From an uncultured Alphaproteobacteria bacterium (GTDB lineage: Bacteria; Pseudomonadota; Alphaproteobacteria; Rs-D84): a stretch of 64,000 nucleotides of DNA. The notes under the pieces are model-generated. The model did no database searches and was not told the origin of the DNA. It saw nothing but the letters and a program-made list of their open reading frames with translations. The position numbers and the translations under genes were made by a program. Of this stretch, positions 4,143-44,094 are shown one piece after another (position 1 is the stretch's first letter; the number at the start of each line of letters is the position of its first letter). The stretch lies in contig CAMHTQ010000005.1 of NCBI GenBank assembly GCA_946188105.1, forward strand, positions 200-64,199, given 5' to 3'.

Positions 4143-4149
4143 CAAATCT

Positions 4150-4226
4150 TGGTAGCGGGAGAGGGACTCGGACCCCCGACACGTGGATTATGATTCCACT
4201 GCTCTAACCAGCTGAGCTATCCCGCC
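4150..4226 (-). tRNA. tRNA with CAU anticodon (elongator Met or lysidine-type Ile2), CCA encoded
   Basis: Reverse complement GGCGGGATAGCTCAGCTGGTTAGAGCAGTGGAATCATAATCCACGTGTCGGGGGTCCGAGTCCCTCTCCCGCTACCA folds as a cloverleaf. 7-bp acceptor (G1-U72), anticodon loop AUCAUAA. Not initiator-like. T-loop is UCCGAGU. Confidence 0.9.
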
Positions 4227-4282
4227 AAGCAAGAGCATTATAATAGTTAAATTTTAAAAATCTAGTAAAAAATTAAAAAGAT

Positions 4283-4645
4283 TTATGCCACATAAATCAA
4301 AGATATCCAAAGTGCCGCAACACCGAATATTGTCAGCATAACAATCGCACTGCCGATATCTTTGGCCTTTTTGGATAATTCGTGTTTTTGGGGGCTTATT
4401 CTGTCGACGATTGTTTCAATAGCGGTGTTCACCAGTTCTGCAATAATTATCAGTAATAAAGATGCAATCATTATGATTCTGGATGTTGTTGGAATATCAA
4501 AAAATGATTGAACGATTATTGCAGTAATACACAGCAAGATATCTTGGCGGAATGCGGCCTCGGATTTAAATGCCGATGATATGCCGTCAAAAGAATATTT
4601 GAATGCATGTATGATTCTGGATATGCCTGTGTATTTAGATTTCAT
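4283..4645 (-). CDS. dgkA: diacylglycerol kinase
   Basis: 120 aa, three TM segments, conserved ELVNTAIETIVDRI motif. Lies 2 nt downstream of the sulfatase-family gene. Confidence 0.9.
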   Translation of the reverse strand: MKSKYTGISRIIHAFKYSFDGISSAFKSEAAFRQDILLCITAIIVQSFFDIPTTSRIIMIASLLLIIIAELVNTAIETIVDRISPQKHELSKKAKDIGSAIVMLTIFGVAALWISLIYVA

Positions 4646-6051: not shown

Positions 6052-6165
6052 AGATGTCCTTTATCAAAAAGGATTCTAATCCTAAAAGATGAAAAAAGCA
6101 ATATATTGTGCGTGGGCTAAAATTATGTTGATTTTTATGTTGTGGTGTTTATAATAACCGCAAAT

Positions 6166-6239
6166 GCCCTAATAGTCTAGTGGTAAAACACGTCCTTGGT
6201 AAGGACGAGTCGCAAGTCCGATTCTTGCTTAGGGCACCA
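6166..6239 (+). tRNA. tRNA-Thr (GGU), CCA encoded
   Basis: GCCCTAA/TTAGGGC acceptor; anticodon stem CGTCC/GGACG with loop TTGGTAA. D-stem has one C-A mismatch; T-loop is TCCGATT. Confidence 0.85.
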
Positions 6240-6325
6240 GATTTTTATCCTGTTATCGCTTTAAATTCCACGAATATTGTTGCTATGGTTTTATTATATA
6301 AATCTGAGTTTTTCGGAATTTTTTG

Positions 6326-6353
6326 TTGACAATTAAAAAATATAGTGTATATT
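6326..6353 (+). promoter_or_regulatory. sigma70-like promoter (TTGACA-16 nt-TATATT)
   Basis: Consensus -35 and near-consensus -10 about 30 nt upstream of ATG 6384. It overlaps the ORF-track start at 6345, which argues for the ATG at 6384. Confidence 0.45.
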
Positions 6354-6383
6354 TTTGTGTGTTGGACATTATGGGGGTCATTT

Positions 6384-9150: not shown

Positions 9151-10923
9151 ATGTTATCTTTGAAATCTAAATACAGAACACATACTTGTGGTGAATTAAA
9201 TATAAGTAATGTCGGTGAAACTGTTACATTGTCTGGATGGGTTCATCGTAAACGCGATCATGGATCTTTGTTGTTTGTTGATTTGCGTGATAATTATGGT
9301 ATTACACAGTGTGTTTTTGATGGTGGGGATGAAGTCGTAGAAAAAATTCGTCCTGAATCTGTGGTTAAAATTACTGGCAAGGTTGTTGCTCGTGATGCCG
9401 AGGCAATAAATGAAAAACTGCCCACAGGTCATATTGAAATTCAGGTGCAAAATCTTGAGGTTTTGACTAATGCTGAAACATTGCCTTTCCAAGTGTTTGG
9501 CGATGATGATACATCCGAAGAATTGCGTTATAAATATCGCTTTTTGGATTTAAGACGTGAAAGATTACATTACAACATTTTAATGCGTAATAAAATGATG
9601 AAGTGGTTAAGAGATAAAATGTGGAATTTAGGATTTTCAGAATTTCAAACCCCATTGTTGACCGCTGATTCACCAGAGGGTGCACGTAGTTTTTTGGTGC
9701 CAAGTCGTTTGCATCATGGTAAGTTTTATGCGTTGCCTCAGGCACCACAAATGTTTAAACAATTGTTGCAAGTGTCTGGATTCGATAGATATTTCCAAAT
9801 TGCACCTTGTTTTCGTGATGAAGATTTGCGTGCTGACAGATTGTTGGAATTTTACCAATTAGATATGGAAATGTCTTTTGTCGATTTGCCAGAAATTCAA
9901 GCAGTGGGCGAAGCAATTATGCCAGAAATGGTTAAAACATTTGCTCCGGATGCAAATGTTTATCCTGATATTCCACATATTTCATATGATGATGCGATGT
10001 TGAAATATGGATGCGATAAACCAGATTTGCGTAATCCAATTTTAATCAGTGATGTTACGGAAATTTTCCGTGGTTCTGAATTTGGAATCTTTGCAAATGC
10101 AATTGAAAATAGTGCGGTTGTTCGTGCTGTGCCAGCACCAAATTCCGCTGATAAACCTCGTTCTTGGTTTGATAAACTGGGTGAATATGCAACCCGCGAA
10201 TTAGGACTGGGGGGATTAGCATATATAGTATTTGCAGATGAACCAAAAGGACCAGTTGCGAAAAAATTGGATGCAGAACGTATTGCAAAATTGAAAGAAA
10301 TCGCAGGTGATAATTCATCGTTGTTCTTTGTTTGTGATAATGTTGATGTCGCAGCCAAGGCAGCAGGTAAATTGCGTAACAAATTTGGTGCAGATTTAGG
10401 ATTGGTCAAAGAACGTGACTTTGCATTTTGTTGGGTTGATAATTTCCCATTCTTTGAACCAGATGAAGAACGCGGTGGCGCACCTGCATTTACACATAAC
10501 CCATTCTCGTATCCTATTGTGGATTCTGTGGAAGAATTGGATACACGCGATCCATTTACGATTAAAGCCGCACAATTCGATATGGTGTTGAACGGTATTG
10601 AAATTTGCAGTGGTGGATTGCGTAATTATAACCCCGAGGTTATGAAGAAATGTTTTGAAATTGCTGGTTATCCAATCGAGGCAGTTGAAAAGAACTTTTC
10701 TGGATTATACACATCATTCCAATATGGTGCACCACCACATGGCGGTTGTGCGTTTGGTATTGAACGTGTGGTTTCTGAAATTTTGGGTATTGGTGAAAGT
10801 TTGCGTGAAATCGTTGCGTTCCCTGCAAACCAACGTGGACAAGATTTGTTGATGGGATCTCCAAACGAGGTAACCGAACAACAATTACGTGATGTCCATA
10901 TCCAAGTCCGTAAGAAAAATTAA
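9151..10923 (+). CDS. aspS: aspartate--tRNA ligase (bacterial type, 590 aa)
   Basis: N-terminal OB fold (TVTLSGWVHRKRDHGSLLFVDLRD). Class II motifs FYQIAPCFRDED and GGCAFGIERV. Bacterial insertion domain present. Confidence 0.95.
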   Translation: MLSLKSKYRTHTCGELNISNVGETVTLSGWVHRKRDHGSLLFVDLRDNYGITQCVFDGGDEVVEKIRPESVVKITGKVVARDAEAINEKLPTGHIEIQVQNLEVLTNAETLPFQVFGDDDTSEELRYKYRFLDLRRERLHYNILMRNKMMKWLRDKMWNLGFSEFQTPLLTADSPEGARSFLVPSRLHHGKFYALPQAPQMFKQLLQVSGFDRYFQIAPCFRDEDLRADRLLEFYQLDMEMSFVDLPEIQAVGEAIMPEMVKTFAPDANVYPDIPHISYDDAMLKYGCDKPDLRNPILISDVTEIFRGSEFGIFANAIENSAVVRAVPAPNSADKPRSWFDKLGEYATRELGLGGLAYIVFADEPKGPVAKKLDAERIAKLKEIAGDNSSLFFVCDNVDVAAKAAGKLRNKFGADLGLVKERDFAFCWVDNFPFFEPDEERGGAPAFTHNPFSYPIVDSVEELDTRDPFTIKAAQFDMVLNGIEICSGGLRNYNPEVMKKCFEIAGYPIEAVEKNFSGLYTSFQYGAPPHGGCAFGIERVVSEILGIGESLREIVAFPANQRGQDLLMGSPNEVTEQQLRDVHIQVRKKN

Positions 10924-15914: not shown

Positions 15915-17699
15915 TTATTTATTTGTCTTTTTTAATAAACTTTGCACCGCTAATGGAAAATCATGGGATTTGGCAAGATAGGAACCGCTGACTAATAAAT
16001 CGGCACCAGCCTCCCAACATTTTTGTGCGGTTTGTGGATTTATTCCACCATCAACAGAAATTATGTATTTTAATCCATGCTTTTTACGAGTAACAGCCAA
16101 AGCCAAAATTTTATTTAATACATCAGGATTAAATGATTGACCAGCCGCCCCAGGTTTTACACCCATTATTAAAATCTCGTCAATATTTTTTAAAACAGGT
16201 ACCAATGCAGATACGGGTGTTTCTGGATTCAATGCAATTCCAGCACGTTTGCCACATGCACGAATATTGCGTAATGCATCGTTAATGCCAGTTGTGTTTT
16301 CTGATAATATTATTGTGTCGGCACCCGCGGCAAGGGCATTATTTGACCAGAATACAGCGTTTTCTGTCATTAAATGAACGTGCAGGTGACTTTTAGTATT
16401 TGCACGAATTTGTTTTAATTCAGGAATACCCCCATATATTTCATCAACATATAAACCATCCATAATATCAACGTGGATTGTCGAGATTCCTGCGGACTCG
16501 AACATTTTGTATGTTAGGGGACTTAACATATTGAAGCATAATGTTGATGGAGCAATTGGAATAAATTTTGGTTTTTGTTTTTTGGGTTTACGTATAAATA
16601 ATTTTTTTATTTTATCTATATATGCCTGATGTTTTTCCATGCGTGCAATGTATGCCTCGCGTGCAGGTTTTTCACAATCCAGAACATAATTTGATAATGC
16701 GGTAATTGTTGCATCGGCATGATAATTTTCTGCGGGTAATCCAAATACATTTTCGATAACATCAACAACACCGTTTATTTGAGTGCCACCACCAGTAATG
16801 ATAATTTTGTTTGGCATATATTCAGATACAGCCGCCAGAGACATTTCTTTTATTTTACCAATAATTTCTGTAACACGTGGAACAACAATATCGTTAACAT
16901 CGCCACGTGTAAAATCATATGCTGTATCGGCTGGAACCAAATGATCCATAGAACGTGGTATTAAATTGGCGGTCATACGTTTTATTCTTTCTGCTTCGTC
17001 AAAATCCAAATTTAATGCACGTGTTAAATCCAATGTTACATTGGACATACCCATTTCTAGTTTTTCATGCCAACATACACCGTTATTATTCCATATTGAG
17101 AGCGATGTAAATTCAGCACCCAAATCAATGAACAATATTGTTTGATTGGGTTTGCGTATAGTCATGCTTTGTAAATATTGTGGATCAAACAGGCCATTAT
17201 ATTGTATGTGTGCCTTGTGCAATAAGGATACAACCTCGTTCAAACGGGCGTTTTCATAGCAAATAACACCGAATTCTGATATTAATTGATGGTCGATACA
17301 TCCAACAGGATTTGGTGTTTCCCGAGCCGATGGGATATCATATTTTAATGGAATTATATGAATAGGTGAAAACCCAGTTGGAATGGCAATTTTGGATATC
17401 TGGGCGCGTATATCTGTTTCGGTTATTTTATGTTCGCTGTTCCAGACGGTTGTTTGATAAGGATTCAAAAATTCAGATTTTCCGAAATTTCCAGTTATAT
17501 ATGCAGAATCAAAATGTGTTTTTAATTCTTCTTCCAGGTTTTGAATTACCGACCGTATGGCGAATTGTTGGTTAAAGTTTTCGCACATCGCAGTTGCCGA
17601 TGCGGCAATTTTTCCAGCACAAATTCTGTGTGCGATTCCACGGACGCAACTGGTTCCGATATCAAGACATAAAAAACGAGGGTCAAAAAAATAATTCAT
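15915..17699 (-). CDS. ftsA: cell-division protein FtsA fused in frame to ribulose-phosphate 3-epimerase
   Basis: aa 1-350 show actin-fold motifs (LDIGTSCVRG, FIDLGAEFT, IITGGGTQINGVVDVIENVFGLP), directly after ftsQ. aa 354-380 form a basic amphipathic linker. aa 381-594 are Rpe-like (IAPS, HVDIMDG, HVHLM, VKPGAAGQSF, SVDGGI, AGADLLVSGS). Confidence 0.75.
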   Translation of the reverse strand: MNYFFDPRFLCLDIGTSCVRGIAHRICAGKIAASATAMCENFNQQFAIRSVIQNLEEELKTHFDSAYITGNFGKSEFLNPYQTTVWNSEHKITETDIRAQISKIAIPTGFSPIHIIPLKYDIPSARETPNPVGCIDHQLISEFGVICYENARLNEVVSLLHKAHIQYNGLFDPQYLQSMTIRKPNQTILFIDLGAEFTSLSIWNNNGVCWHEKLEMGMSNVTLDLTRALNLDFDEAERIKRMTANLIPRSMDHLVPADTAYDFTRGDVNDIVVPRVTEIIGKIKEMSLAAVSEYMPNKIIITGGGTQINGVVDVIENVFGLPAENYHADATITALSNYVLDCEKPAREAYIARMEKHQAYIDKIKKLFIRKPKKQKPKFIPIAPSTLCFNMLSPLTYKMFESAGISTIHVDIMDGLYVDEIYGGIPELKQIRANTKSHLHVHLMTENAVFWSNNALAAGADTIILSENTTGINDALRNIRACGKRAGIALNPETPVSALVPVLKNIDEILIMGVKPGAAGQSFNPDVLNKILALAVTRKKHGLKYIISVDGGINPQTAQKCWEAGADLLVSGSYLAKSHDFPLAVQSLLKKTNK

Positions 17700-23172: not shown

Positions 23173-23883
23173 ATGGCAAATAGAACAGTAGGTTTTTCCA
23201 GATTTAAAGTTTGGACAGTATTTATAATTTTATTTATATGTGGTGCTTTTGTTGGTGTTGGTATTGCAAATTGGGGACATTCTTTGAAATTAAAGACAGA
23301 TGCCGAACAACAAAAAGGTGCAGAAGAATTAACATCTTGTCAGGCAATTGAACGTGTGTTGTTGGAACAGGTAAATCATAATGATAATAGTTGCAGCGAT
23401 AATAAATATGATTTAGAAACTTATAAAAAATTGGTCGCATATGGTTGCCCAGAAAATCGTGAAAAATTTCTCCAGGCAGCACAGAATTTAAATGCAGTAA
23501 TTGCTGTTACATGTACAGAATATGTGCCTGCTGATAAAACATGTTTACAAATAGAGGGTCATTTGAATAGTAAATTGGGCAGTTATTATGTTGAAATGTC
23601 TGCGGATGAACATATTGAACGCGCCAAGATTTATGCGGTGATGGCGGAACGTGGTTGCCCAGAAAATAGTGCAAAATATACAGAGTTGGCCAAGAAAGAA
23701 TTAGAAGTTGCACGTGGTATCAGCGATGACAAGTTCAACGAGGGCGAAACAATCGAGGTTGTTGAAACTTATAAAAGATTGAAAATGCAACAAGATGCCG
23801 AAGAAATATTTAATAAAGCCAAAAAACTGACAAACCCAGCAATTGACTTTATTATGCAGGTTGAAAAAATCATTAACGAATAG
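23173..23883 (+). CDS. membrane-anchored protein with two GCPEN repeats (236 aa)
   Basis: Strong SD AAGGAGAG. N-terminal TM VWTVFIILFICGAFVGVGIANW. YGCPENREKF and RGCPENSAKY motifs encoded by an exact 15-nt repeat. Confidence 0.6.
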   Translation: MANRTVGFSRFKVWTVFIILFICGAFVGVGIANWGHSLKLKTDAEQQKGAEELTSCQAIERVLLEQVNHNDNSCSDNKYDLETYKKLVAYGCPENREKFLQAAQNLNAVIAVTCTEYVPADKTCLQIEGHLNSKLGSYYVEMSADEHIERAKIYAVMAERGCPENSAKYTELAKKELEVARGISDDKFNEGETIEVVETYKRLKMQQDAEEIFNKAKKLTNPAIDFIMQVEKIINE

Positions 23884-23891
23884 GGATAATA

Positions 23892-24545
23892 ATGCAAAAA
23901 TATATATTGGCATTCGCTATAACGGCTTTGGTTCCATGCGTGTATATCGCGGTTGCTAATGCCGGAGATTACGAGGAAGAATACGAAGAAGAGGCCGAGG
24001 TTGTTGAAACCCGCGGTGTCGCCAAACGTATGAGTTGCGATGATATTAAAAAAGAAATGGATGAATTGAATGCCTTGGAAGAGTTAGACAATGATCAATC
24101 CGACCGGCTAAATACATTAAAGGTGGATTATCGGTCTAAATGTATGAAAAAGGCATCGGGTGGTCGTTCGGTTGGACGTGGCAGTGTGGCCAGAATAAAG
24201 GCCCAAGCGGTCACTGTTACAAAGGATGTTGCTGAGGAAAAACCGGCAGAGACCGAAGAGGCACAAGAGCCAAATGCCGCATGTACAAATCCTGATGAAA
24301 ATGGTTGTTGCCCAGGGGAAATATATACAGATTTGGGTGACCAAGGGTTTAATTGTTGCAAGGAAGACGATAAAAATCTGTGCTATCCACCAATCAAGGT
24401 TGTGAAAGATTATTCTTTATGTGATGACGGAACAGAACCTGATAAAAATGGTTGTTGTGCTGGTGAAAAATACACAGATTTGGGCGAGCAAGGATTTAAT
24501 TGTTGCAAGGAAGACGGTAAAACTTGTTTTCCACCAATAAAATAG
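23892..24545 (+). CDS. secreted acidic protein with two C-terminal Cys-rich repeats (217 aa)
   Basis: Signal peptide ...VYIAVANA; acidic tract DYEEEYEEEAE. Tandem modules GCCxGExYTDLGxQGFNCCKEDxKxCxPPIK. Confidence 0.6.
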   Translation: MQKYILAFAITALVPCVYIAVANAGDYEEEYEEEAEVVETRGVAKRMSCDDIKKEMDELNALEELDNDQSDRLNTLKVDYRSKCMKKASGGRSVGRGSVARIKAQAVTVTKDVAEEKPAETEEAQEPNAACTNPDENGCCPGEIYTDLGDQGFNCCKEDDKNLCYPPIKVVKDYSLCDDGTEPDKNGCCAGEKYTDLGEQGFNCCKEDGKTCFPPIK

Positions 24546-24591: not shown

Positions 24592-25557
24592 ATGAGAGGG
24601 AACAGCAAATTTTTTGCAGTTGTGTATATGCGTGCATTTTTTGCGGTTGTTTGTTTGCTTTTTTTTAATATTGGTTATGTGAATGCTTCTGAATTAAATG
24701 ATGCTTTGCGTGCGACATATGTGGCATGTGTTGGTATAGATGATGAATTGTCTGATTTAAAAAAAATGGCTGGAATAAATACAGCGGTGACTGCGGTTGG
24801 AACTGCGGCTGGGGCTGGGGCAACCATTGTTGGTATTGTAAAAGCAAATAAGGATGCCAAGGCTAAGGAAAAATTTGATAATTATATGAATAGCAAACCA
24901 GTACAAGTCATGAATAAAAATTCTGTTGATGCATTTTTTGCGGCGTGGGAGAAATACGAGTGGGGACAAGGTGATGCGGCTGAATTTCAAAAATTACGCA
25001 AACAATCAAAAACTTTGGGAAATTGGCGGACAGGGTTGATAGCAGGTAATGCGGCGACTAATATTGCAGGTGCAATAATTGCTGGAAATAACAAAGTTGA
25101 TAAAGATTTGAAAACCCAGATAAATGATTGCAAGGTGGCTGTTAACAATTTGAAAAATGCAACCTTTCAAGCACGTATAAGTGGCGAGGATATATCCGAA
25201 GCAAATGAAATTATTGCTGTGTGTGGCGAATATGATTATATAGATTCTGATGTGTCCAAGATAAATGGTAAAGCCAAGGGTGCTTTTGTTTCAAGTGTTG
25301 TTGGTGCGGCCACAGGTGTTGCTGGAACTGTGACATCAGCTATTGCAAATAGTGAAAAGGTTCGTAAAGATGAAACTGTTAATACAAAAACTGGTGAAGA
25401 TTGGCAAGCAGAGAAAAATTGGAATACTGCGGCGAATGTATTGGCAGGAACATCAACAGTGGCATCTGGTGTTGCGACTGTATTTAATGCGATGCAGATA
25501 AGTGCGATAAAGAAAGTCGCTGATGTTGCATCAAAATGCACAGGAGTTTTGAAATGA
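24592..25557 (+). CDS. secreted Gly/Ala-zipper protein (alternative start ATG 24628)
   Basis: Signal peptide MRAFFAVVCLLFFNIGYVNA. Four Gly/Ala/Thr-rich small-residue helices (e.g. AVTAVGTAAGAGATIVGIV, GLIAGNAATNIAGAIIAG). The stop overlaps the next ATG. Confidence 0.6.
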   Translation: MRGNSKFFAVVYMRAFFAVVCLLFFNIGYVNASELNDALRATYVACVGIDDELSDLKKMAGINTAVTAVGTAAGAGATIVGIVKANKDAKAKEKFDNYMNSKPVQVMNKNSVDAFFAAWEKYEWGQGDAAEFQKLRKQSKTLGNWRTGLIAGNAATNIAGAIIAGNNKVDKDLKTQINDCKVAVNNLKNATFQARISGEDISEANEIIAVCGEYDYIDSDVSKINGKAKGAFVSSVVGAATGVAGTVTSAIANSEKVRKDETVNTKTGEDWQAEKNWNTAANVLAGTSTVASGVATVFNAMQISAIKKVADVASKCTGVLK

Positions 25558-28500
25558 AAAAAATATTCTGTGCATTGTTTGGCGTTTTTGTGTTTGTATC
25601 GGCATTCGCTGGCGTAGATGGCGATGGTGGTACTTATAAAAACGTTTCGTCTGAAATGTGGATTTCCAGATATTATATTGAAAATTTAAAAAAGAGTGCT
25701 GGTAGTGGAGGAAATTTAGCTGATGATGTTGTTGATGCTATGTTAGCTAAATATGATGAATTAGCAGCATCAGAAGATATAGTAATGAAAACATCTGTTG
25801 GAAATCAGTATTTTACTGTTTTAGATGGAACAGAACCATTAACATTGCAAGATTTAAATGCAATTTGTATTGCTGGTGGATTTACTGAAAAGGAAGCATG
25901 TCGTACAAATGTTATAAATCCAATATATACCAATATAAACAGAGTGTCTTATCATAATGTTTGTAAAGGTGAAATTACTGGCGGGACAAATCATTGTGTT
26001 GATGATGTTTTTGTAAAAGAATATGAATATGATGAAATAACAAAAGGCGAATGGCATAATGCCAGACAAGAAGTAGCAGATGGAAAAGATCCACATATTA
26101 ATTTCCATAATTCTGGTTTGGTTATCAATGGTGATAATTATAGGTATGATCAAATAGAGACAAAAACAGTTACATCAAAAAATCCATATGCTCAAGATGT
26201 AGAAGTATCTGAATGGACTGCATATGGTTTTGCACTAGAGTATGCTAGATTGCATGGACATAGAGTGGTTTGTAGTTCAAATGTAGAATTTAATTGGATA
26301 AATTGTACCAGTGTTGATAATCAACATTTTTATACGTTCCGGTTTAAAGATACATATGGTGGATCTGATACTTCAATAACAGATGGTTTTAGAGAAAAGA
26401 ATGTAAAGAATATAGCCCGTGGAATATGTGCGTTGTTTGGAATAAATGCTTATGAGGGTTTTCATATAGTTTGTGAAAAGCAGTGCGATAATGAAATACA
26501 AGATGTTAGTAAAAAATTTGCTATGAATGCACATTCTGGTGAGTATTATACTGGATTTGCAAATACGCATTATGGGTGTGCAATAGATTCAATTGGTGAT
26601 GTATATAATGATGTAAAATTAAAAACTTATCCTAGGTATGAACATATGTCTACGGCTTTTTCAAAAGTTCAAGCAAGGTTAGAGCCGACTTTAATAAATG
26701 TGTTAAAATTGTATATAAAATCCCAAGGTATTGAAATAAAATCTTTTACTTGTGCTTATAATACTATTAATTCAAAGGCTGATTATGTTTTACCGTGTAA
26801 ATTAAATGGTACGGATGTTGATTTTTTGTTTGATGATTTATATGAAACTGCAGAGTATGCTAAAAAAGCGGGTTTTGCGGGAATGTCATGTTTAACCGCA
26901 TCGGCGACTTTGGGTAAAGTATCAAATAAAAAATTTACTACAAAATTTGATGGGAAGTCATGTATTGGGCCGGACAAGGAAATATGTGATGCAATGAATA
27001 ATATTGTCCCTGGGGGAACAGAATGGGATGCGGATTCAGATAGATGTGTGTTAAAAGCGGCAGAAAAAGCGGCAAATATAAATTTTGTTACAACATTGAT
27101 TATAGATGGTGTTGCGTTGGCTGTAACTGTAGTATCTGGCGCTGGATTGGTTGTTATTATTGTTACTGCTGTAAGTTCTGTGGGGGTTACTTTGGGTTCA
27201 AAATGGTTAGAAGATTTTGAAAGCACGTTACCAAATGAATTCGCAAAAGAATTTGTTAAAAAAGCATCTGCTTGTAACATACCAGAAAAAATTGAGTATG
27301 ATAAATGTAGCGCAATACAAAAAAAATGTGCAAAAGATGCGTTGATAGAATTTGATAAATCTCTGGGATATATTATAGATGGAACCAGTACACAAACAGG
27401 TGAATATATAGGGCAGGCCGCAGAAACTTTGCTTCAATGTGTAACAGAGGCAGATTTGGAAGATATAGAAATAAAATCAACTACACGGCCAGAGATGGAT
27501 TTTGTAGAGGCGTCTAGTGCTGTATTGATGGTTATGGGGTTTGCAAGCCCAAGTGGGTCAACTAAATTTACTATGTTTACTAAATTTCACAGATTGACGA
27601 AATGGCTAAATAAAATAAGTTATACATCTAAATTAAAGAAATTTAAACTTGGTGAAAACCTTTATCGTATTAAATTAACAGGAAAAATACCAACGGAGAA
27701 ATTAAATAGTTATATTGAGAAAATGAAAAAAAATGGTTTTTCTGTTATGTTGGAAACAGATGCTAAAACTGGGCAGCAATTTTTTAGAGTTTTTGAAACG
27801 GAATTAGATATTAATTCTTTAAAATTAAAAGCAAGTCAAAGTTTTGATAATTATTTAGATGAGTTTTTAAAAACAGGGCGGAGTAATGGACTTCCAGTTA
27901 GTCGTTTAACAAAAGAACAATGGGGGCAATTAAGTAAGCATTTAGAAGGTCAGGGAGTAGAGTTATATGAGGATGTAATGAATGGAAATCGTGTTATGCG
28001 GTTTAGAAAAATTAGTTCATTAGATATTAATTCTTTAAAATTAAAAGCAAGTCAAAATTTTGATAGATATTTGGCTGAGGCAATGTCGTCGAATCCAACT
28101 TTTTATATGCTACCAGCAGGACGTTTAACTGAAAGTGAATGGATGCAATTAAATGCATTTCTTAAAAATCAGGGGGTCGAGTTGGTTGATTCTACTAGAA
28201 ATGGTGAAAAATATAAGATATTTAAACTACTTGGTTCCAAAGGTGAGGAAAATTGGATATTTTCAAAAATATATAATGATATGCCTGATGAAATTTTAAA
28301 CGCAAAATTAAAATATATTTATGAACACAGTAATGGAGATATTGTTTCTGCGGTTAATGCATTAAAAGCATCAGGAATTTATGATGCGCAGAAAGTATCA
28401 GAACTTGCGCAGGATTTAGGGAAAGAAGCAGTGATACGTATTCGGAATAGTGGTTCGAATATAATAGATAGGATGAAAAGATATAAATATATGACAAATG

Positions 28501-28892
28501 AAGAAAAAAAGGTTTTGGCGGGTGATTTGCATGAAATAATTACTACTGAACGACGGAATCATGTTGGAAATACCATTGTTAATTATGATTTTGAATCAAG
28601 TTGGAGTTGGCAGGCTGGTAGTGGTACAAGTAGTAATGGTTTTAGATTTGTTTATGGCTTAAAAGGGGATTCTATTGAGGGGTTAGTTTCTATCGTGTTT
28701 CATGAAAACACACATGCCCTTCAAAAACTTGGAAAATCTGCTTTACCAAAACCTGTTGCAGATTGGAATGCAAGGTATTATGCAGATCCTAATAATTTTC
28801 CAAAATTATATTATGATAATGTTATTGAAATAGAGTCTTATCAAATAGGTAATGAGGCGGCAAAATATGTTATTAGGGCATTAGGGGTGTAA
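25554..28892 (+). CDS. large exported multidomain protein with C-terminal HExxH (zincin-like) module (1112 aa)
   Basis: ATGA overlap with the upstream gene. Signal peptide MKKIFCALFGVFVFVSAFA. Cys-rich N-terminal half; ~40-aa bilobed hydrophobic segment; three ~72-aa repeats; FHENTHALQ at 28698-28721. Confidence 0.7.
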   Translation: MKKIFCALFGVFVFVSAFAGVDGDGGTYKNVSSEMWISRYYIENLKKSAGSGGNLADDVVDAMLAKYDELAASEDIVMKTSVGNQYFTVLDGTEPLTLQDLNAICIAGGFTEKEACRTNVINPIYTNINRVSYHNVCKGEITGGTNHCVDDVFVKEYEYDEITKGEWHNARQEVADGKDPHINFHNSGLVINGDNYRYDQIETKTVTSKNPYAQDVEVSEWTAYGFALEYARLHGHRVVCSSNVEFNWINCTSVDNQHFYTFRFKDTYGGSDTSITDGFREKNVKNIARGICALFGINAYEGFHIVCEKQCDNEIQDVSKKFAMNAHSGEYYTGFANTHYGCAIDSIGDVYNDVKLKTYPRYEHMSTAFSKVQARLEPTLINVLKLYIKSQGIEIKSFTCAYNTINSKADYVLPCKLNGTDVDFLFDDLYETAEYAKKAGFAGMSCLTASATLGKVSNKKFTTKFDGKSCIGPDKEICDAMNNIVPGGTEWDADSDRCVLKAAEKAANINFVTTLIIDGVALAVTVVSGAGLVVIIVTAVSSVGVTLGSKWLEDFESTLPNEFAKEFVKKASACNIPEKIEYDKCSAIQKKCAKDALIEFDKSLGYIIDGTSTQTGEYIGQAAETLLQCVTEADLEDIEIKSTTRPEMDFVEASSAVLMVMGFASPSGSTKFTMFTKFHRLTKWLNKISYTSKLKKFKLGENLYRIKLTGKIPTEKLNSYIEKMKKNGFSVMLETDAKTGQQFFRVFETELDINSLKLKASQSFDNYLDEFLKTGRSNGLPVSRLTKEQWGQLSKHLEGQGVELYEDVMNGNRVMRFRKISSLDINSLKLKASQNFDRYLAEAMSSNPTFYMLPAGRLTESEWMQLNAFLKNQGVELVDSTRNGEKYKIFKLLGSKGEENWIFSKIYNDMPDEILNAKLKYIYEHSNGDIVSAVNALKASGIYDAQKVSELAQDLGKEAVIRIRNSGSNIIDRMKRYKYMTNEEKKVLAGDLHEIITTERRNHVGNTIVNYDFESSWSWQAGSGTSSNGFRFVYGLKGDSIEGLVSIVFHENTHALQKLGKSALPKPVADWNARYYADPNNFPKLYYDNVIEIESYQIGNEAAKYVIRALGV

Positions 28893-28952: not shown

Positions 28953-29027
28953 GCGAGCATAGTACAAGGGCTAGTACGCAAGCCTTCCAAGCTTGATATG
29001 CGGGTTCGAGTCCCGCTGCTCGCACCA
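28953..29027 (+). tRNA. tRNA-Gly (UCC), CCA encoded
   Basis: GCGAGCA/TGCTCGC acceptor; anticodon stem CAAGC/GCTTG with loop CTTCCAA; T-arm GCGGG-TTCGAGT-CCCGC. Confidence 0.92.
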
Positions 29028-29034
29028 TGGGATT

Positions 29035-29121
29035 GGGCGTGCGCCGGAGTTGGAGAGCCGGGGCAGACTGTAAATCTGTTGTCTTATGACTGAGGTGGTT
29101 CGAATCCACCCACTCCCACCA
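29035..29121 (+). tRNA. tRNA-Tyr (GUA), type II with long variable arm, CCA encoded
   Basis: Anticodon stem GCAGA/TCTGT with loop CTGTAAA; variable arm GTC-TTAT-GAC; T-arm GGTGG-TTCGAAT-CCACC. Acceptor GGGCGTG/CACTCCC has one C-U mismatch. The 5' end is uncertain by a few nt because GGGATTG at 29029 is an alternative. Confidence 0.8.
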
Positions 29122-29130
29122 AAAATAGAA

Positions 29131-29154
29131 AACGACCGAAATGGTCGTTTTTTA
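29131..29154. terminator. bidirectional rho-independent terminator
   Basis: AACGACC-GAAAT-GGTCGTT followed by a T-run. Lies between tRNA-Tyr (+) and the lipoprotein gene (-). Confidence 0.75.
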
Positions 29155-29159
29155 TTTAG

Positions 29160-29597
29160 TTAATCTTTATTCTTTTCTTCTGGGGTATAATAATCCGAAA
29201 CTTTATAATAATTTGAGGCCGTTTTAGTTTCGGTTTTGGTTAAAAACATAATTGTATAATATTGAGCATGTTTTACTATTTCATATGGAACAAAAACACC
29301 ATTAGAAATATAACCACTTGTAGTTTTTTCTGTATCACCTGTATTTGCTAACATTGAAAAATATTGATAACCATTATCATTTACAAATTTCGCCGTATTT
29401 TGCATACAATTATCTTTTACAAACTGATAACTAGCATAACCGTTTCCGCCACAAAATATACGATACAACTTACCGTCTAATTTTTCATATCCAGCACCCA
29501 AAACTTCGTTTGTCCGTAATTGTTCAACTTCAAATCCTGCATGTGGTGTCGCACAGCCGTATAAAAATAATATACTAAAAATAAGAATTTTTTTCAT
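29160..29597 (-). CDS. lipoprotein (145 aa)
   Basis: MKKILIFSILFLYGC lipobox. Confidence 0.6.
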   Translation of the reverse strand: MKKILIFSILFLYGCATPHAGFEVEQLRTNEVLGAGYEKLDGKLYRIFCGGNGYASYQFVKDNCMQNTAKFVNDNGYQYFSMLANTGDTEKTTSGYISNGVFVPYEIVKHAQYYTIMFLTKTETKTASNYYKVSDYYTPEEKNKD

Positions 29598-29707: not shown

Positions 29708-30385
29708 CTATTTACGATACTTGTCATATTCTGATGAGTTTGGTTTTATCAATCTGCATGAAGGTTTGTTTGCACGCAGGTTGCCATAGACATCTATAAA
29801 TGCACCCCAATTTTTTGTACGGTTCCAATCCAGACCCAATGTTTCAAATGCCGCCTGTTGATTTGGAATTGCTGTATATTTAGTACATTCTATGGGTTTT
29901 ATAAATTCTGTCTTTTTATAAAGTTCGGTGTTTCTGGTTAATATTCCATCCAATTCTTTTTGTGGAGATAAATATCGGCCCTCGCTTTCGCGGGTTGGAA
30001 CATTTGCTTTTTCGCATTTGTCCGAGTCGATTGAAAAACGTTCATATTTTGTACAATCTTCATATTTTTTTGTGCATACACTTGCATATATTGGTACCAC
30101 GGTTTCAAAGTCATCGGTTTGTCTGAAATATCCGCTGGGGACAGAGATGCAGTACGCATCAGTATATTCTTGGCGATAACATTTTTTCGTGTTGGCGGAC
30201 AGTCCCATTTCAAAATGTTCTTTTAAACTTTTTTTACATTCTTTTTTGGTTGGATAACATACGTCTTGCCAATATGCACCATGTGATGCCCAGAATGCAT
30301 AACAATAATTTGTGTCTGGGGTGTCGCTGGAACCAAAAATACCAAATATTGAAAAAAGGGTTAAGGCAGGTGCAGATATTAACAT
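29708..30385 (-). CDS. secreted Cys-rich protein (225 aa)
   Basis: Hydrophobic N-terminus; about 12 Cys; no recognised family. Confidence 0.5.
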   Translation of the reverse strand: MLISAPALTLFSIFGIFGSSDTPDTNYCYAFWASHGAYWQDVCYPTKKECKKSLKEHFEMGLSANTKKCYRQEYTDAYCISVPSGYFRQTDDFETVVPIYASVCTKKYEDCTKYERFSIDSDKCEKANVPTRESEGRYLSPQKELDGILTRNTELYKKTEFIKPIECTKYTAIPNQQAAFETLGLDWNRTKNWGAFIDVYGNLRANKPSCRLIKPNSSEYDKYRK

Positions 30386-30526: not shown

Positions 30527-30937
30527 ATGTTGAAAAAGATTTTATGTGTATGTTCGGTTGTTACTTTGACTGCTTGCGATAATGTTGATATTTCCAGATA
30601 TCCTGAAAGTATTCAAAATTGTTATAATGAGATAATCTATGAAGATAATAATTGCACAACCAGTAAGAAAACTATTGTTAGATATTGTCAATGTACAGAT
30701 GGTAAGCAAGCAGATTTAGATGCAAAATGGAATGAATTGAATAGAGGGTTGCGTGCGGCCAGAGCGGGCGGATTTTTCAAAGGTAATGCGGGGGGATTGG
30801 TTCGGTTTGGATTACAAAATAGTGCCAGAGCCCAATATGATGCGTATGCAGAAAAATTGTTTGATGAATGTGCCAAAAAAACTGGATATACCCGTATAAA
30901 AAATTGTCCAAAGAAAGAAACCAAAAAAGATAAATAA
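30527..30937 (+). CDS. lipoprotein (136 aa)
   Basis: MLKKILCVCSVVTLTAC lipobox; SD GGAGGTG upstream. Confidence 0.6.
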   Translation: MLKKILCVCSVVTLTACDNVDISRYPESIQNCYNEIIYEDNNCTTSKKTIVRYCQCTDGKQADLDAKWNELNRGLRAARAGGFFKGNAGGLVRFGLQNSARAQYDAYAEKLFDECAKKTGYTRIKNCPKKETKKDK

Positions 30938-30948
30938 TGGAGGTGAAA

Positions 30949-31683
30949 ATGACTGCGGCTGAAATTGGTGGTTTTTTTGGGGCTTTTATAATTACTGGTC
31001 TGATACGGTATGCGTATAAGAATTGGTATAGAAAACACAAAGATAGCACAGATCCGGTTATGCCGAATTTGTTGTCTTTTGTTACAATTATTTTGTTGTT
31101 TGGACTTATCAATACATATAAATATGGATTGGTGTTGGCTTTGTTCGTTGCAGTGATTAGATATTTCTGGGCTCAGTTGTGTTGGTTGGGTATCGATTGC
31201 TTTATTGAATATAAAAAGAAAGTCCAAAATATGACAAAATATATTTTGATAATTGGTGCATCAATTATTTGTTTTTGTTGTATAAAAATCGGTGTTGTTG
31301 CATATGTATCAAAAACAATTGTTCCAGATATTATCAATAAATCTGTGTTGTCTTGTTGGGCAACAGCCGCAGAAAATTTCTGTAAAGATTCTGGGTATAT
31401 GCCAAATGACTATATAAAAATGTTACGTGGTTTTGAAAAAATAAACTTGGTTGAACGTAGTGGATTTAAGGGGGCGGCCTATGCAATGGAAACAAGTTGT
31501 ATAAGGACGGCAACAGAACAATTCTATAACCAGATGAAATATACCTATGCATCAAAACAAGAAATTTGTTATGAAATAGATTTAACATCACCGTTTGATG
31601 TTAAAGATTCATTGGAAGCGGCATCAACAATTATTACATCTGGGGCCAGAAATTTAATGGCAAAAGAAATATTGAGACATTAA
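30949..31683 (+). CDS. integral membrane protein (about 4 TM plus C-terminal soluble domain)
   Basis: SD GGAGGTG 5 nt before ATG 30949. The ORF-track start 30937 overlaps the preceding stop. Confidence 0.55.
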   Translation: MTAAEIGGFFGAFIITGLIRYAYKNWYRKHKDSTDPVMPNLLSFVTIILLFGLINTYKYGLVLALFVAVIRYFWAQLCWLGIDCFIEYKKKVQNMTKYILIIGASIICFCCIKIGVVAYVSKTIVPDIINKSVLSCWATAAENFCKDSGYMPNDYIKMLRGFEKINLVERSGFKGAAYAMETSCIRTATEQFYNQMKYTYASKQEICYEIDLTSPFDVKDSLEAASTIITSGARNLMAKEILRH

Positions 31684-40918: not shown

Positions 40919-42499
40919 ATGAGTATGAATAGTATGTTAGAAACAGCGGTCCAGCAATGGCCAGAGAACCTGTTTTTAGTACGTGAGGGGATTACGTATT
41001 CTGCGTTTATGGAAATGGTAAAAGCACGTGCGGTAACGCTGATGGAACACGGCATTGGTGTCGGGGATACAGTCGGTGTGTTATCACATAATATTCCTCA
41101 ATTTCCGCTCACATTGTTTGCAATATGGTATATCGGGGCGCGGGCCTTGATGTTGGATACAAATTTGACACCATTTGAGTATGATAATATGGCGAAAGTT
41201 GCTGGATGTAAATATGTCTGTGCAGAAACGTCTTTTTTCTATAAAACAGATGTGTTCAAATTTATCGAGATTACCGCCAAAGACGGCAATCCAAATCCAA
41301 TGTTGCGTCCGTACGAGTTCAAAGATGATGATATTGCGACTTTGTCTTTTACATCTGGTTCAACCGGCAATCCAAAGGTTGTGCCATTGACGCACTATAA
41401 TTTAACAGAGTGTGCAAATTCATTAGAAGATATGTCTGAATATTTTGGTTCTGGGGATGTCATGTATGGCTTTTTACCATTGTATCATATATTCGGGTTT
41501 TCTATTGGAATTTTGGCAACTGTACATTTTGGTGCAGGAATTGTGTTGCAGCCAACGGTTAATCCGAAATACATTTTGGATGATTTTAAAAAATTCCGTC
41601 CACATGTTATTCCGGCTGTTCCACGTTTGTGGGAATTATTTAGAAATAAAATCATGGATACTTTAAAAGCACAAAAAAAGTGGCGTATTGTGGAATTTAT
41701 TTTACGCAATCGTGAACGTATCTCGGATATGGGATTGGGATTTTTTGTGCGTAAAGTCCAAGAACCTATTTTGGATATTTTCGGTGGACGTGTGAGATTG
41801 CTGATTGCGGGGGGTGCGGCAACCAAGCCCGAGGTTGAAACTTTTTATGAAAGTTTAGGATTGGCATTTATCCAAGGATATGGTTTAACAGAAACAGTTG
41901 GACCAATCTGTATTTCTAAACCAAATAAAAAGCGTATGGCTTTTTCTGTGGGTGCGCCAACAACAAATAACGAATGTGAAATTCGTGATAAAGATGAAAA
42001 TGGTGTTGGTGTTTTGTGGTTGCGTGGTCACCAAGTATTTGGCGGTTATATGAATAACGATGATGCCAATAAAGAATGTTTTGATGATAAAGGATTCTTT
42101 AATACTGGGGACATGATGTATATGGACAAAAATGGCGAATTACATTTTGCTGGTCGTAAAAAACAAATCATTGTTTTGGATTCTGGTAAAAATGTTTATC
42201 CCGATGAATTAGAGGCATTGTTCTTGGATATTCCAGGGGTAAAAAATGTTGCTGTATTTGAACACAAGGTAAAAGGTAAAACTGTTGCATACGGTGTATT
42301 TAGCGTTGATGCGGACATGACAATGGAAAAGTTGGCTGATGCAGTTGCCGAGGCAAATAAAAAGGTTGCATCATATAAATGGGTTACCCATTTTGCGATG
42401 ACAACAGACGATTTGCCAATGACATCTACACAGAAAATAAAACATCATATTGTTCGCAAGAATTTGATTGATGGTAAATATCCAATAAGACATGAATAA
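40919..42499 (+). CDS. AMP-dependent synthetase/ligase (long-chain acyl-CoA synthetase, FAA1/COG1022-like), paralog 1
   Basis: SFTSGSTGNPKVVPLTH, GYGLTET, TGD, GRKKQIIVLDSGKNVYPDELE, TSTQKIKH adenylation motifs. Confidence 0.85.
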   Translation: MSMNSMLETAVQQWPENLFLVREGITYSAFMEMVKARAVTLMEHGIGVGDTVGVLSHNIPQFPLTLFAIWYIGARALMLDTNLTPFEYDNMAKVAGCKYVCAETSFFYKTDVFKFIEITAKDGNPNPMLRPYEFKDDDIATLSFTSGSTGNPKVVPLTHYNLTECANSLEDMSEYFGSGDVMYGFLPLYHIFGFSIGILATVHFGAGIVLQPTVNPKYILDDFKKFRPHVIPAVPRLWELFRNKIMDTLKAQKKWRIVEFILRNRERISDMGLGFFVRKVQEPILDIFGGRVRLLIAGGAATKPEVETFYESLGLAFIQGYGLTETVGPICISKPNKKRMAFSVGAPTTNNECEIRDKDENGVGVLWLRGHQVFGGYMNNDDANKECFDDKGFFNTGDMMYMDKNGELHFAGRKKQIIVLDSGKNVYPDELEALFLDIPGVKNVAVFEHKVKGKTVAYGVFSVDADMTMEKLADAVAEANKKVASYKWVTHFAMTTDDLPMTSTQKIKHHIVRKNLIDGKYPIRHE

Positions 42500-42511
42500 A
42501 AAGGACATAAT

Positions 42512-44092
42512 ATGACTTTATATGATTTGTTAGAAGAAAATATCAAGAAAGATCCTAAATTAGTTTTCTTGGTGCGCGAAAATATTACTTTTGAAGATTT
42601 TCCAAAGTATATCAAGGCACGTGCCGCTACATTGGCAAAAGAGGGTATAAAGGCCGGTGATGTTGTTGGTTTGTTGTCACATAATCTACCACAATTTGTG
42701 TACACTTTGTTCGCAATTTGGTATCTGGGTGGCAAGGTTTTATTGTTGGATACAAACTTGACATCTATTGAATATGAAAATATGACAACACTTACAGATT
42801 GTAAATTCGTTGTTGCTGAAAAATCTTTCTTTTATAAAACCAAGAACTTTAAGTTCATTGATATAGAAACAGAAGATAAAGATAGTGGTGAAGATATTAA
42901 ACGTTACAAGGTCAAAGATGATGATATTGCAACATTATCATTTACATCGGGTTCAACTGGAACACCAAAGATTGTGCCATTGACACATAAAAATTTGGTT
43001 TCTTGTTCAGAAAGTTTGGAAAGTTTGAGCATATTCTTGCGTCATGGCGAGGTTATGTATGCTTTCTTGCCTTTGTATCACGTGTTTGGTTTTGCTGTGG
43101 GATTTTTGGCACCAATGCATTTTGGTATGGGAATCTTGTTGCAATCGACAATCAATCCAAATGCAATTTTGCAAGATTTTGCTACATATAAACCACAAGT
43201 TATTCCTGCGGTTCCAAAATTGTTCGAAATATTCCGCAAGAAAATTATTGATGGCGTCAAGGCAAAGAAAAAATGGTGGTTGGTATCATTTATTATGAAA
43301 CACCAGAAGGGTTTGCGTATGATTGGGTTGGGCAAATTGGTTGATAAAGTTTTAGGTCAAATCAATTCTGTATTTGGTGGTCGTGTACGTTGCATGGTTG
43401 CAGGTGGTGCGGCGACCAAGCCAGAGGTTGAAAATTTCTATAATAAATTAGGAGTTGCCTTTGTTCAGGGTTATGGTATGACCGAAACCGTTGGACCAAT
43501 CTGTTGTTCTAAACCATTGAAAAAACGTGTGCCATTTGCATTTGGGGCACCATTAGGTCAATGTTGTTGCGAAATTCGTAATGCAGATGAAAATGGTATT
43601 GGTATGTTGTGGGTCAAAGGCGACCAGGTGTTTGGTGGCTATTTGAATAATGACGAGGCCAATAAAGAATGTTTTGATAAAAACGGATTCTTCTGCACTG
43701 GTGATTTGGTATCCATTGATAAAAATGGTGAATATCACTTTGCGGGGAGAAAGAAACAAGTGATTGTTTTGGATTCTGGTAAAAATGTTTATCCTGATGA
43801 ATTAGAAGGATTATTCATTGAAATCCCAGGGGTAAAAAATGTCGCTGTGTTTGAACACGAGGTCAAAGGTAAAACTGTTGCATATGGTGTATTCAGTGTA
43901 GATCCAGACATGACATTAGAAAAACTGGGTGCGGAAATTGCAGAAAAGAATAAAAAGGTTGCATCGTATAAATGGGTTACTCATTTTGCTATGACAACCG
44001 ATGACTTGCCTGTAACCAGTACGCAAAAAGTAAAACATCATGTTGTACGGAAATATTTGATGGATGGTAAATATATCGAAAAAGGTCTGTAA
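42512..44092 (+). CDS. AMP-dependent synthetase/ligase, paralog 2
   Basis: Same motif set, collinear with paralog 1 over the full length. 12-nt spacer after paralog 1. Confidence 0.85.
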   Translation: MTLYDLLEENIKKDPKLVFLVRENITFEDFPKYIKARAATLAKEGIKAGDVVGLLSHNLPQFVYTLFAIWYLGGKVLLLDTNLTSIEYENMTTLTDCKFVVAEKSFFYKTKNFKFIDIETEDKDSGEDIKRYKVKDDDIATLSFTSGSTGTPKIVPLTHKNLVSCSESLESLSIFLRHGEVMYAFLPLYHVFGFAVGFLAPMHFGMGILLQSTINPNAILQDFATYKPQVIPAVPKLFEIFRKKIIDGVKAKKKWWLVSFIMKHQKGLRMIGLGKLVDKVLGQINSVFGGRVRCMVAGGAATKPEVENFYNKLGVAFVQGYGMTETVGPICCSKPLKKRVPFAFGAPLGQCCCEIRNADENGIGMLWVKGDQVFGGYLNNDEANKECFDKNGFFCTGDLVSIDKNGEYHFAGRKKQVIVLDSGKNVYPDELEGLFIEIPGVKNVAVFEHEVKGKTVAYGVFSVDPDMTLEKLGAEIAEKNKKVASYKWVTHFAMTTDDLPVTSTQKVKHHVVRKYLMDGKYIEKGL

Positions 44093-44094
44093 GC

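Follow-up and report, generated by a model that had tools for sequence, protein, structure and literature searches.

A polymorphic two-gene cassette of Candidatus Enterousia and order Rs-D84 couples a small glycine-zipper-type protein to a large, predicted exported protein with exchangeable C-termini

We analyzed a 64,000-nucleotide stretch of DNA (the window) from an uncultured alphaproteobacterium of the order Rs-D84 (assembly GCA_946188105.1, contig CAMHTQ010000005.1, positions 200 to 64,199 of the forward strand), centering on two overlapping genes: an open reading frame (ORF) of 321 amino acids (aa) at 24592-25557 (+) and one of 1112 aa at 25554-28892 (+), whose products we call the small and the large protein. 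The pair represents one copy of a two-gene cassette that is specific to the lineage of Candidatus Enterousia and the order Rs-D84 and occurs there in multiple copies. Judged by their Sec-type signal peptides, both products are predicted to be exported. The large protein has an N-terminal part that is conserved yet evolves fast, and it ends in a C-terminal domain (tip) that differs between copies. We propose, at a probability of roughly 45%, that the cassette encodes a polymorphic effector resembling AB toxins together with a dedicated helper, by a mechanism that we infer from the layout of the proteins.

An initial annotation, made from the letters of the window, had proposed that the large protein is arranged as a binding region, a membrane-insertion hairpin, and an enzymatic domain. 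This layout is independently supported because the tips are swapped among relatives, the cysteines are distributed asymmetrically, and the hairpin occurs in every homolog.

A conserved gene pair with exchangeable C-termini

Both ORFs and their ATGA overlap lie where the initial annotation had placed them. In the junction sequence TTGAAATGAAAA / GGAGTTTTGAAATGAAAA, the ATG of the large gene (25554-25556) overlaps the TGA of the small gene (25555-25557), and GGAG at 25543-25546 stands 7 nt 5' of this ATG. An in-frame ATG at 25536, upstream of the large-gene start, would give an alternative product of 1118 aa. The ATGA recurs at 83 of 86 homologous junctions between small and large genes. Thus, the coupled pair is a conserved unit, as first claimed, and the overlap is not due to chance.

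At least 1479 relatives of the small protein were found at E ≤0.001, and the best 120 of them share 55-76% identity with it at a length of ~310 aa. A survey of the pair in related genomes, suggested in the initial annotation, was carried out as a scan of one genome per prokaryotic species and returned 209 small-protein loci, of which 80 were kept. Nearly all of these 80 are labelled Candidatus Enterousia or uncultured gut or rumen Alphaproteobacteria metagenome-assembled genomes. Several genomes hold two or three cassette loci apiece, with a maximum of three, and the gene after the small-protein gene encodes a protein of 850-1819 aa. That the cassette is multi-copy, polymorphic, and lineage-specific had escaped the initial annotation. 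For the large protein, a word-indexed search found 14 relatives, and ~70 more were obtained by translating the genes that follow small-protein genes. Enterousia is placed in the order Rs-D84, whose genomes are <1 Mb, lack the tricarboxylic acid cycle, respiration, and standard transporters, and are thought to belong to partner-dependent bacteria (PMC12306168).

Some loci depart from this pattern. Locus L026 contains two small-protein genes (3550-4476 and 6001-6954) 1.5 kb apart; the first has no ATGA junction and is followed only by a 234-aa ORF, possibly as the remnant of a cassette that has decayed or been truncated. At several other loci the partner ORF is short (229-430 aa), suggesting frameshifts or pseudogenes.

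The C-terminal domains of ~75 proteins fall into one class of 28 with the motif 'PFYVS[ST]G...GKW', two related HExxH classes of 19 and 8 sequences, and a remainder of small classes and singletons. The tip of the 1112-aa protein is a member of the 8-sequence HExxH class, and HExxH is only one of many alternative C-termini. Proteins L047 (PFYVS tip) and P0150 (HExxH tip) are 80% identical over ~650 N-terminal residues and have unrelated C-termini; P0012, at 65% identity to L047, carries a third kind of terminal domain, which is OspF-like. Conversely, PFYVS domains that are 46-54% identical to one another are carried on N-termini of only ~24-34% identity. N-terminal similarity among relatives stops at or near an alpha/beta module with the motif RLTxxEWxxL...GVEL, where the variable C-terminus starts, and this module therefore behaves like a pre-toxin junction.

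Exchange is also visible within genomes and within single proteins. The genome JAFRSV01 has three cassette copies with three different tips, and two tips stand in tandem in P0002 and P0142 (PFYVS plus HExxH) and in P0163 (two HExxH domains). P0142 also has an N-terminal extension of ~600 aa that contains a glycine-zipper-like helix of its own. In a syntenic comparison of our locus with L033, identity is 85-86% for LolE and LolD, 60% for the small protein, and 32% for the N-terminal part of the large protein; the two tips are of different classes. This gradient of identity is arms-race-like.

One tip could be related to a described enzyme. The terminal domain of P0012 (aa 769-868) matches the OspF family of phosphothreonine lyases, based on NCBIfam (E 3.6e-7) and on PDB entries 3i0u and 3bo6 (E ~2-3e-3). 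OspF and SpvC act on eukaryotic mitogen-activated protein kinases, and the family is otherwise known from type III effectors. The OspF-like tip hints at a eukaryotic target, which is unproven. When ~20 alternative C-termini were scanned against Pfam, NCBIfam, and PADLOC, nothing rose above threshold. We rejected a J-domain in the last ~110 aa of L069 and L076, where an HPD motif ('KNFHPDKF') had been seen by eye, as the Pfam DnaJ model went undetected even at E ≤10.

No immunity gene is conserved downstream within any tip class, and the next features after the 1112-aa gene are tRNA genes. Only in the HExxH subclass HEHGHxID, a helical ORF of 92-102 aa has a start that overlaps the stop of the large gene (L041, ~10286-10565; L053, ~10118-10420; L057, ~10349-10657). 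This ORF could be an immunity or chaperone gene confined to that subclass.

The absence of a tip-specific immunity gene downstream is also what would be expected if the large protein were a bacteriocin-like pore former that acts via its hydrophobic hairpin, with the small membrane protein as its immunity factor, as for pore-forming colicins. In colicins, immunity is conferred by small helical membrane proteins through recognition of the hydrophobic hairpin, and nothing in the cassette is as constant as its hairpin and its small protein. We nevertheless regard such a bacteriocin pair as very improbable, since it leaves the exchangeable C-terminal domains without a role and does not account for the Sec export of both proteins. 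In addition, the large protein has no similarity to colicin pore domains, and the upstream position and translational coupling of the small gene are more in keeping with a stoichiometric partner than with an immunity factor. We dropped the idea of an immunity function of the small protein directed against the tip in view of its upstream position and its conservation regardless of the tip.

Domain architecture of the large and small proteins

The large protein begins with a canonical Sec leader (MKKIFCALFGVFVFVSAFA, cleaved before G) that is kept in homologs; the signal peptides claimed at the outset are thus borne out for both proteins by Sec-type N-termini read from the sequence. Its AlphaFold model is of moderate confidence, with a predicted local distance difference test (pLDDT) value of 68, and yields the succession of domains listed in Table 1. 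The initially described ~490-aa Cys-rich region is recovered as aa 20-512 with 16 Cys, and the two-lobed hydrophobic stretch as the 37 residues of aa 513-549. The core from the N-terminal domain through the hairpin (aa ~215-575) is shared at 20-37% identity by ~70 partner proteins. Every homolog has an equivalent of the hairpin, ~34-40 aa long and rich in G, A, T, and V, with a central (S/T)GG-type turn, and acidic residues follow its second arm in many of them.

Behind the hairpin lies a helical stalk, for which Pfam gave only a sub-threshold match to NttA (E 0.02-0.04), and then a third, shorter hydrophobic segment. Family-wide, the 15 aa after this segment contain a mean of 2.9 K+R residues, compared with 1.7 in the 15 aa before it. 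Of three repeats of ~72 aa that had been proposed for the following region, two are clear (aa 751-822 and 823-895, 48% identical), and the third is reduced to a partial unit (aa 695-750) that is similar only to the C-terminal half of the full repeats. No tandem repeat was found at the DNA level beneath these protein repeats.

Cysteine counts over ~80 family members divide the large protein in two. In the N-terminal domain, cysteine makes up 4.43% of residues family-wide, with 16-36 per protein, almost always an even number, in columns that are nearly invariant across homologs. The stalk contains 2.5% Cys family-wide, and nearly all proteins have either 2 or 4 there. These figures show an N-terminal part made for oxidising conditions outside the cytoplasm. 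Past the third hydrophobic segment, Cys drops to 0.18% (70 Cys in 38,373 residues), compared with 1.21% in nine proteins of the window that served as the cytoplasmic reference (binomial p ~1e-116), and the last 483 residues of the 1112-aa protein contain none. The C-terminal part is under selection against any cysteine. This depletion is not explained by ordinary residence in the cytoplasm, and is what is expected for an exported domain that works or travels unfolded without disulfides. The same split is found in Pseudomonas exotoxin A, in which every disulfide lies outside the translocated catalytic domain.

The tip of the 1112-aa protein probably belongs to a new zincin-like family and may be a metallopeptidase of the gluzincin type. 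Across 24 divergent aligned sequences, in which identity averages 17% per column, invariance is limited to H1050, E1051, H1054, Y1086, and E1092. The HExxH motif at 28701-28715 and the downstream IEIESY cluster had both been pointed out in the initial annotation, together with the caveat that the motif might not be conserved; HExxH proved invariant in all 24 sequences, as did Y1086 and E1092, the latter being the first Glu of IEIESY (aa 1091-1096). AlphaFold places HExxH in a helix (1041-1058) and E1092, the candidate third metal ligand, in a separate helix (1085-1110). Ahead of the motif, 40 residues resemble strands in sequence (TIVNYDF, SWSWQAG, FRFVYGL) but are modelled at pLDDT <50. In the model no strands are called within segment 999-1040, also at pLDDT <50, whereas the sequence pattern and alignments to M13 peptidases suggest a strand there.

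Homology searches with this domain returned weak matches, most of them to zincins. Scanning each member against Pfam gave sub-threshold matches only, nearly all of them to zincins (SprT-like, DUF6782, MPTase-PolyVal, DUF5700, YgjP-like, M35, and M4); the best, to SprT-like, reached E 2.4e-4 in 3 of 24 members, below its curated threshold. With a profile of the 24 sequences against the PDB, the top eight matches were M13 gluzincins (neprilysin, PepO, and Zmp1) at non-significant E values of 0.18-0.3, with alignments that span the strand before the motif as well as HExxH itself. Foldseek with the whole large-protein model returned no zincin; searches with whole models have little sensitivity for the C-terminal domain. 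Only one relative came up when this domain was used in a word-index search, and an exhaustive search of 1.84 billion representative proteins with a four-sequence domain profile found 54 clusters. The matches are mostly the C-terminal ends of long proteins, with a few internal ones, and all eight that were inspected have the same large-protein architecture.

The small protein carries a predicted leader, and its homologs have short MKK...A-x-A leaders aligned at the same position. The four small-residue helices described initially are present at aa 59-85, 142-167, 228-254, and 278-306. They are uncharged and rich in G, A, S, T, and V, with small residues spaced i+4 that are invariant in 120 homologs. 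Outside the leader, which contains C21, the protein has four cysteines (C46, C180, C211, and C316), all invariant. AlphaFold predicts an all-helical protein with long helices (pLDDT 66). From these features, the small protein is predicted to be an exported, tightly packed helical protein, either soluble or membrane inserted. It matched nothing above threshold in Pfam (including the glycine-zipper families), NCBIfam, or PADLOC, and it has no lipobox. A 120-sequence profile gave nothing significant against the PDB, and Foldseek of the model against the PDB reached at best E 0.026 with TM-scores <0.35, the TolC-like and ClyA-family matches being at noise level.

These features bear on the main rival of an exported effector, in which the two proteins would form a resident inner-membrane complex that acts as a sensor, regulated protease, or defence module. 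The small protein would have four transmembrane helices, and the large protein would have three spans (the hairpin and the third segment), which would leave its Cys-rich domain on the periplasmic side and its variable C-terminus inside the producer's own cytoplasm. Sec signals on both proteins would suit such a complex, as would the hydrophobicity of the hairpin (Kyte-Doolittle 2.13 over 34 aa), the K/R residues that follow the third hydrophobic segment, and the even number of stalk cysteines in nearly every protein. A model with four transmembrane helices also puts all four invariant cysteines of the small protein in the periplasm and its variable, K-rich loops in the cytoplasm. The helices of the small protein, however, reach only ~1.0-1.4 on a 19-aa Kyte-Doolittle window, below typical transmembrane helices, and a cytoplasmic C-terminus does not account for a more than six-fold depletion of Cys relative to cytoplasmic proteins (0.18% vs 1.21%). 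Swapping of cassettes, arrays of several tips, and an OspF-like tip are typical of delivered effectors rather than of a resident complex, and a defence module finds no support in PADLOC, which is empty. We consider a resident complex unlikely.

A proposed delivery mechanism

In the effector that we favor, the N-terminal domain would, after Sec export, bind the surface of a partner or host cell. The hairpin and stalk would then insert into a membrane, aided by the co-made small glycine-zipper protein, which may hold the hydrophobic segment or form part of a translocon. The Cys-free C-terminal part would cross that membrane, and once across, the zincin-like domain could cleave a target protein. 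Other copies would deliver other tips, such as the 'PFYVSxG...GKW' domain or the OspF-like lyase, and this repertoire would serve the partner-dependent lifestyle of bacteria with genomes <1 Mb.

Several observations weigh against this proposal. For the producer, no route across the outer membrane was identified, and the hydrophobicity of the hairpin is such that the Sec translocon would normally retain the protein in the inner membrane. Neither sequence nor structure showed a likeness to a known toxin, translocation domain, or secretion component: Foldseek of both models against the PDB and BFVD gave no match better than E 0.005, with TM-scores ≤0.29, and PDB profile searches came back empty or non-significant. 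For the HExxH tip, no zincin family model in Pfam or NCBIfam matched above its curated threshold, and HExxxH replaces HExxH in 6 of the 19 class-A domains. The match of the P0012 tip to OspF is weak, with the K-x-H motif aligned and the later catalytic Lys not clearly so. In the commonest tip, the PFYVS domain, no charged or nucleophilic residue is invariant and Pfam finds no match; from its sequence this domain looks like a binding module, not an enzyme.

This last resemblance would suit surface-anchored or released exo-enzymes and adhesins that involve no translocation. Here the HExxH domain would digest host or dietary protein for an auxotroph, the hairpin would be an anchor, and the small protein a scaffold or chaperone. 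Sec signals on both proteins and a disulfide-rich N-terminal domain agree with such a role, and so does an organism without standard transporters and many biosynthetic pathways. Because unpaired cysteines are commonly avoided in exported domains, the Cys-free C-terminus fits as well. What exo-enzymes or adhesins leave unexplained is why ~20 Cys in the N-terminal half stand beside none in the C-terminal half if both occupy the same compartment, and why the hairpin and the third hydrophobic segment are universal. An extracellular substrate of an OspF-like lyase is not known, and there is no similarity to known secreted proteases. We judge this explanation to be decidedly unlikely.

A bolder form of the effector proposal, which we hold tentatively and on the doubtful side, is a hitherto unrecognised Sec-dependent two-component delivery system in which the glycine-zipper protein and the hairpin and stalk together would form a translocon that takes exchangeable Cys-free effectors, including several new enzyme families with the zincin-like one among them, into the partner or host cell that these bacteria depend on. 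If this is true, the delivery cassette would be a central determinant of the Enterousia/Rs-D84 lifestyle in animal and human guts. Delivery would also mean that polymorphic effectors have a new kind of trafficking module, whose helper resembles no known secretion component, and would provide a catalogue of undescribed effector domains, among them an OspF-like lyase that occurs outside type III systems, the abundant PFYVS domain, and a new family resembling zincins. As a bait or label, the N-terminal domain could then help in finding the partner organism. Even if delivery is wrong, two large unannotated families are now defined, with boundaries, invariant residues, and distribution.

Enterousia/Rs-D84 are widespread uncultured gut and rumen bacteria, and the gradient of identity points to a molecular interface with a partner. 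Two or three copies of a ~4.3-kb cassette are a large investment for a genome of <1 Mb.

Genomic surroundings and comparison with known systems

The positions of the features of the pair are collected in Table 1. The pair lies among chromosomal housekeeping genes (gyrB, aspS, uvrB, ftsQ/A, lolE/D, mnmE, and ruvA), and G+C is ~36%.

Table 1. Features of the cassette and its 3' boundary in the window (all positions refer to the 64,000-nucleotide stretch).
Feature	Position	Strand	Basis or remark
Small partner gene, 321 aa; predicted Sec-exported, all-helical, four glycine-zipper-type helices, four invariant Cys	24592..25557	+	ORF, homologs, AlphaFold model
Predicted signal peptide of small protein, aa 1-32, cleavage after VNA (...GYVNA/SE)	24592..24687	+	predicted from the letters; true start may be M13
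Small-residue helix 1, aa 59-85, MAGINTAVTAVGTAAGAGATIVGIVKA	24766..24846	+	19-aa Kyte-Doolittle maximum ~1.4
Small-residue helix 2, aa 142-167, zipper G148-G152-T156-G160-A164	25015..25092	+	zipper positions (nearly) invariant in 120 sequences
Small-residue helix 3, aa 228-254	25273..25353	+	
Small-residue helix 4, aa 278-306	25423..25509	+	
Translational-coupling junction: GGAG Shine-Dalgarno (25543-25546) and ATGA overlap (25554-25557)	25543..25557	+	sequence; ATGA in 83 of 86 homologous junctions
Large polymorphic protein, predicted exported, 1112 aa	25554..28892	+	
Signal peptide of large protein, aa 1-19, SAFA/G	25554..25610	+	read from sequence; conserved in homologs
Disulfide-rich alpha/beta N-terminal domain, aa 20-512, 16 Cys (between aa 105 and 498)	25611..27089	+	presumed ectodomain/binding domain; pLDDT mostly 70-88
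Hydrophobic helical hairpin, aa 513-549, TTLIIDGV...VTLGS, central SGAG turn	27090..27200	+	Kyte-Doolittle 2.13 over 34 aa; model helical but pLDDT <50
Helical stalk, aa 550-652, 4 Cys (574, 585, 592, 629)	27201..27509	+	pLDDT 83-86
Third, shorter hydrophobic segment, aa 653-669, then K/R-rich stretch	27510..27560	+	seen across the family, e.g., WRAVGIGLQLASLITGITKW
Cys-free alpha/beta linker modules, motif RLTxxEWxxL...GVEL: partial unit aa 695-750, full repeats aa 751-822 and 823-895	27636..28238	+	small alpha/beta domains in AlphaFold model
C-terminal tip (warhead), aa 898-1112, probable new zincin-like domain; HENTH 1050-1054 (28701-28715), Y1086 (28809-28811), E1092 (28827-28829)	28245..28889	+	
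tRNA-Gly and tRNA-Tyr (28953-29121), then bidirectional terminator-like hairpin (29123-29157) closing the unit	28953..29157	+	

The region immediately around the pair is an island of fast-evolving secreted proteins. Directly upstream are two Cys-rich ORFs without a Pfam match (23173-23883 and 23892-24545, both +), one with an N-terminal membrane anchor and the other with a signal peptide; the latter also contains a duplicated module, 'NGCC.GE.YTDLG.QGFNCCKED.K.C.PPIK'. In L033, L009, and L070, both ORFs again accompany the pair in synteny, and their identity is 33-53%, compared with 76-86% for the flanking Lol genes. On the 3' side of the tRNA genes, four small ORFs (29160-29597 and 29708-30385, both -; 30527-30937 and 30937-31683, both +) look like exported proteins or lipoproteins; they are often Cys-rich, and none has a Pfam match.

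Other parts of the window contain further unusual genes. Three tandem paralogs of 526, 526, and 524 aa at 40919-45669 (+) encode AMP-binding enzymes of the acyl/aryl-CoA ligase type, a notable expansion for a genome of <1 Mb. In a single 594-aa ORF at 15915-17699 (-), an FtsA-like region (aa ~180-327) is followed by a ribulose-phosphate 3-epimerase domain (aa 397-575); this is a fusion unless the mechanical ORF list has run two genes together. Two more large ORFs have no Pfam match: 6345-8579 (+, 744 aa) and 50386-52584 (+, 732 aa).

At locus L001/L002 (5300-19000), the genes flanking a cassette with a 1298-aa PFYVS-tip partner encode two serine recombinases, an AAA_15/AAA_21 ATPase, a DNA methylase, and DUF3768; at least some copies thus ride on a mobile-element-like island. 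We considered and rejected an anti-phage defence system, based on the empty PADLOC result and on this locus being the only inspected copy in such a context. A phage origin was likewise rejected, based on the lack of BFVD matches and on the chromosomal housekeeping context of the pair.

Neither gene product could be assigned to a described family, in agreement with the initial annotation: searches of Pfam, NCBIfam, PADLOC, and the PDB and searches with Foldseek gave no identifying match for either. For the large protein, nothing rose above threshold in Pfam, NCBIfam, or PADLOC, and its profile had no match in the PDB. Two protein families and several tip domains are thus without annotation in any library searched.

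The initial annotation had also compared the hydrophobic stretch with chlamydial Inc proteins. Common to both is a hydrophobic stretch of ~37-40 aa whose two lobes are joined by a short turn. Inc proteins, however, are type III substrates without a Sec signal or a large disulfide-rich ectodomain, whereas the cassette proteins carry Sec leaders and come from an unrelated lineage; the Sec signal peptides and the ~490-aa disulfide-rich ectodomain contradict the analogy.

For the small protein, whose helices the initial annotation had likened to those of pore formers, the closest parallels are alpha-helical pore-forming toxin components of the ClyA family (XaxAB, AhlB, MakA, and SmhB) and the glycine-zipper outer-membrane lipoproteins SlyB/Pcp, which share with it a size of ~300 aa, an all-helical and glycine-zipper-like make-up, and an operon with a partner. 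Foldseek matches to these proteins are weak, with E values of 0.08-0.5 and TM-scores <0.3 on a model of pLDDT 66, and the lipobox is missing.

The HExxH tip resembles minimal zincins and gluzincins (SprT-like, MPTase-PolyVal, YgjP/DUF45, and M13 neprilysin/PepO) in having HExxH in a helix, an invariant Glu 38 aa downstream on a later helix, and a beta-prone 'G.Y...N.I.LNP' segment ~15-20 aa before HExxH. It differs from them in a helical N-terminal extension of ~150 aa, in an invariant Tyr six residues before the Glu, and in being almost confined to the ends of the large-protein family.

Single-chain AB toxins, such as diphtheria toxin with its T domain, CNF1/PMT/DNT, and Pseudomonas exotoxin A, have the same order of binding part, hydrophobic helical hairpin, and enzymatic part. 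As in these toxins, acidic residues flank the second hairpin arm in many cassette homologs, disulfides are limited to the non-catalytic part, and the catalytic part is free of Cys. Unlike them, the cassette has a separate, obligatorily co-encoded helper and comes from an uncultured commensal or symbiont with a reduced genome; sequence and fold similarity to these toxins is not detectable, and its translocation is putative.

Polymorphic toxin systems (CdiB/CdiA, Rhs, and MafB) share with the cassette a constant N-terminal module, unrelated C-terminal domains that recombine, a junction linker, multiple copies, and multi-domain arrays. As in cdiB-cdiA, a smaller conserved partner lies upstream of a large polymorphic exoprotein. 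The cassette differs from two-partner secretion (TPS) and contact-dependent inhibition systems in that an all-helical partner is predicted in place of an Omp85 barrel, and no TPS, haemagglutinin, or POTRA match was obtained. It also differs from polymorphic toxin systems in general, as it has neither a known trafficking domain (TPS/FHA, RHS, PAAR, or LXG) nor a conserved class-specific immunity gene downstream, and almost all of its tips are undescribed. It fits no specific family considered here. In its logic, the cassette works like a polymorphic toxin system and like the single-chain AB toxins.

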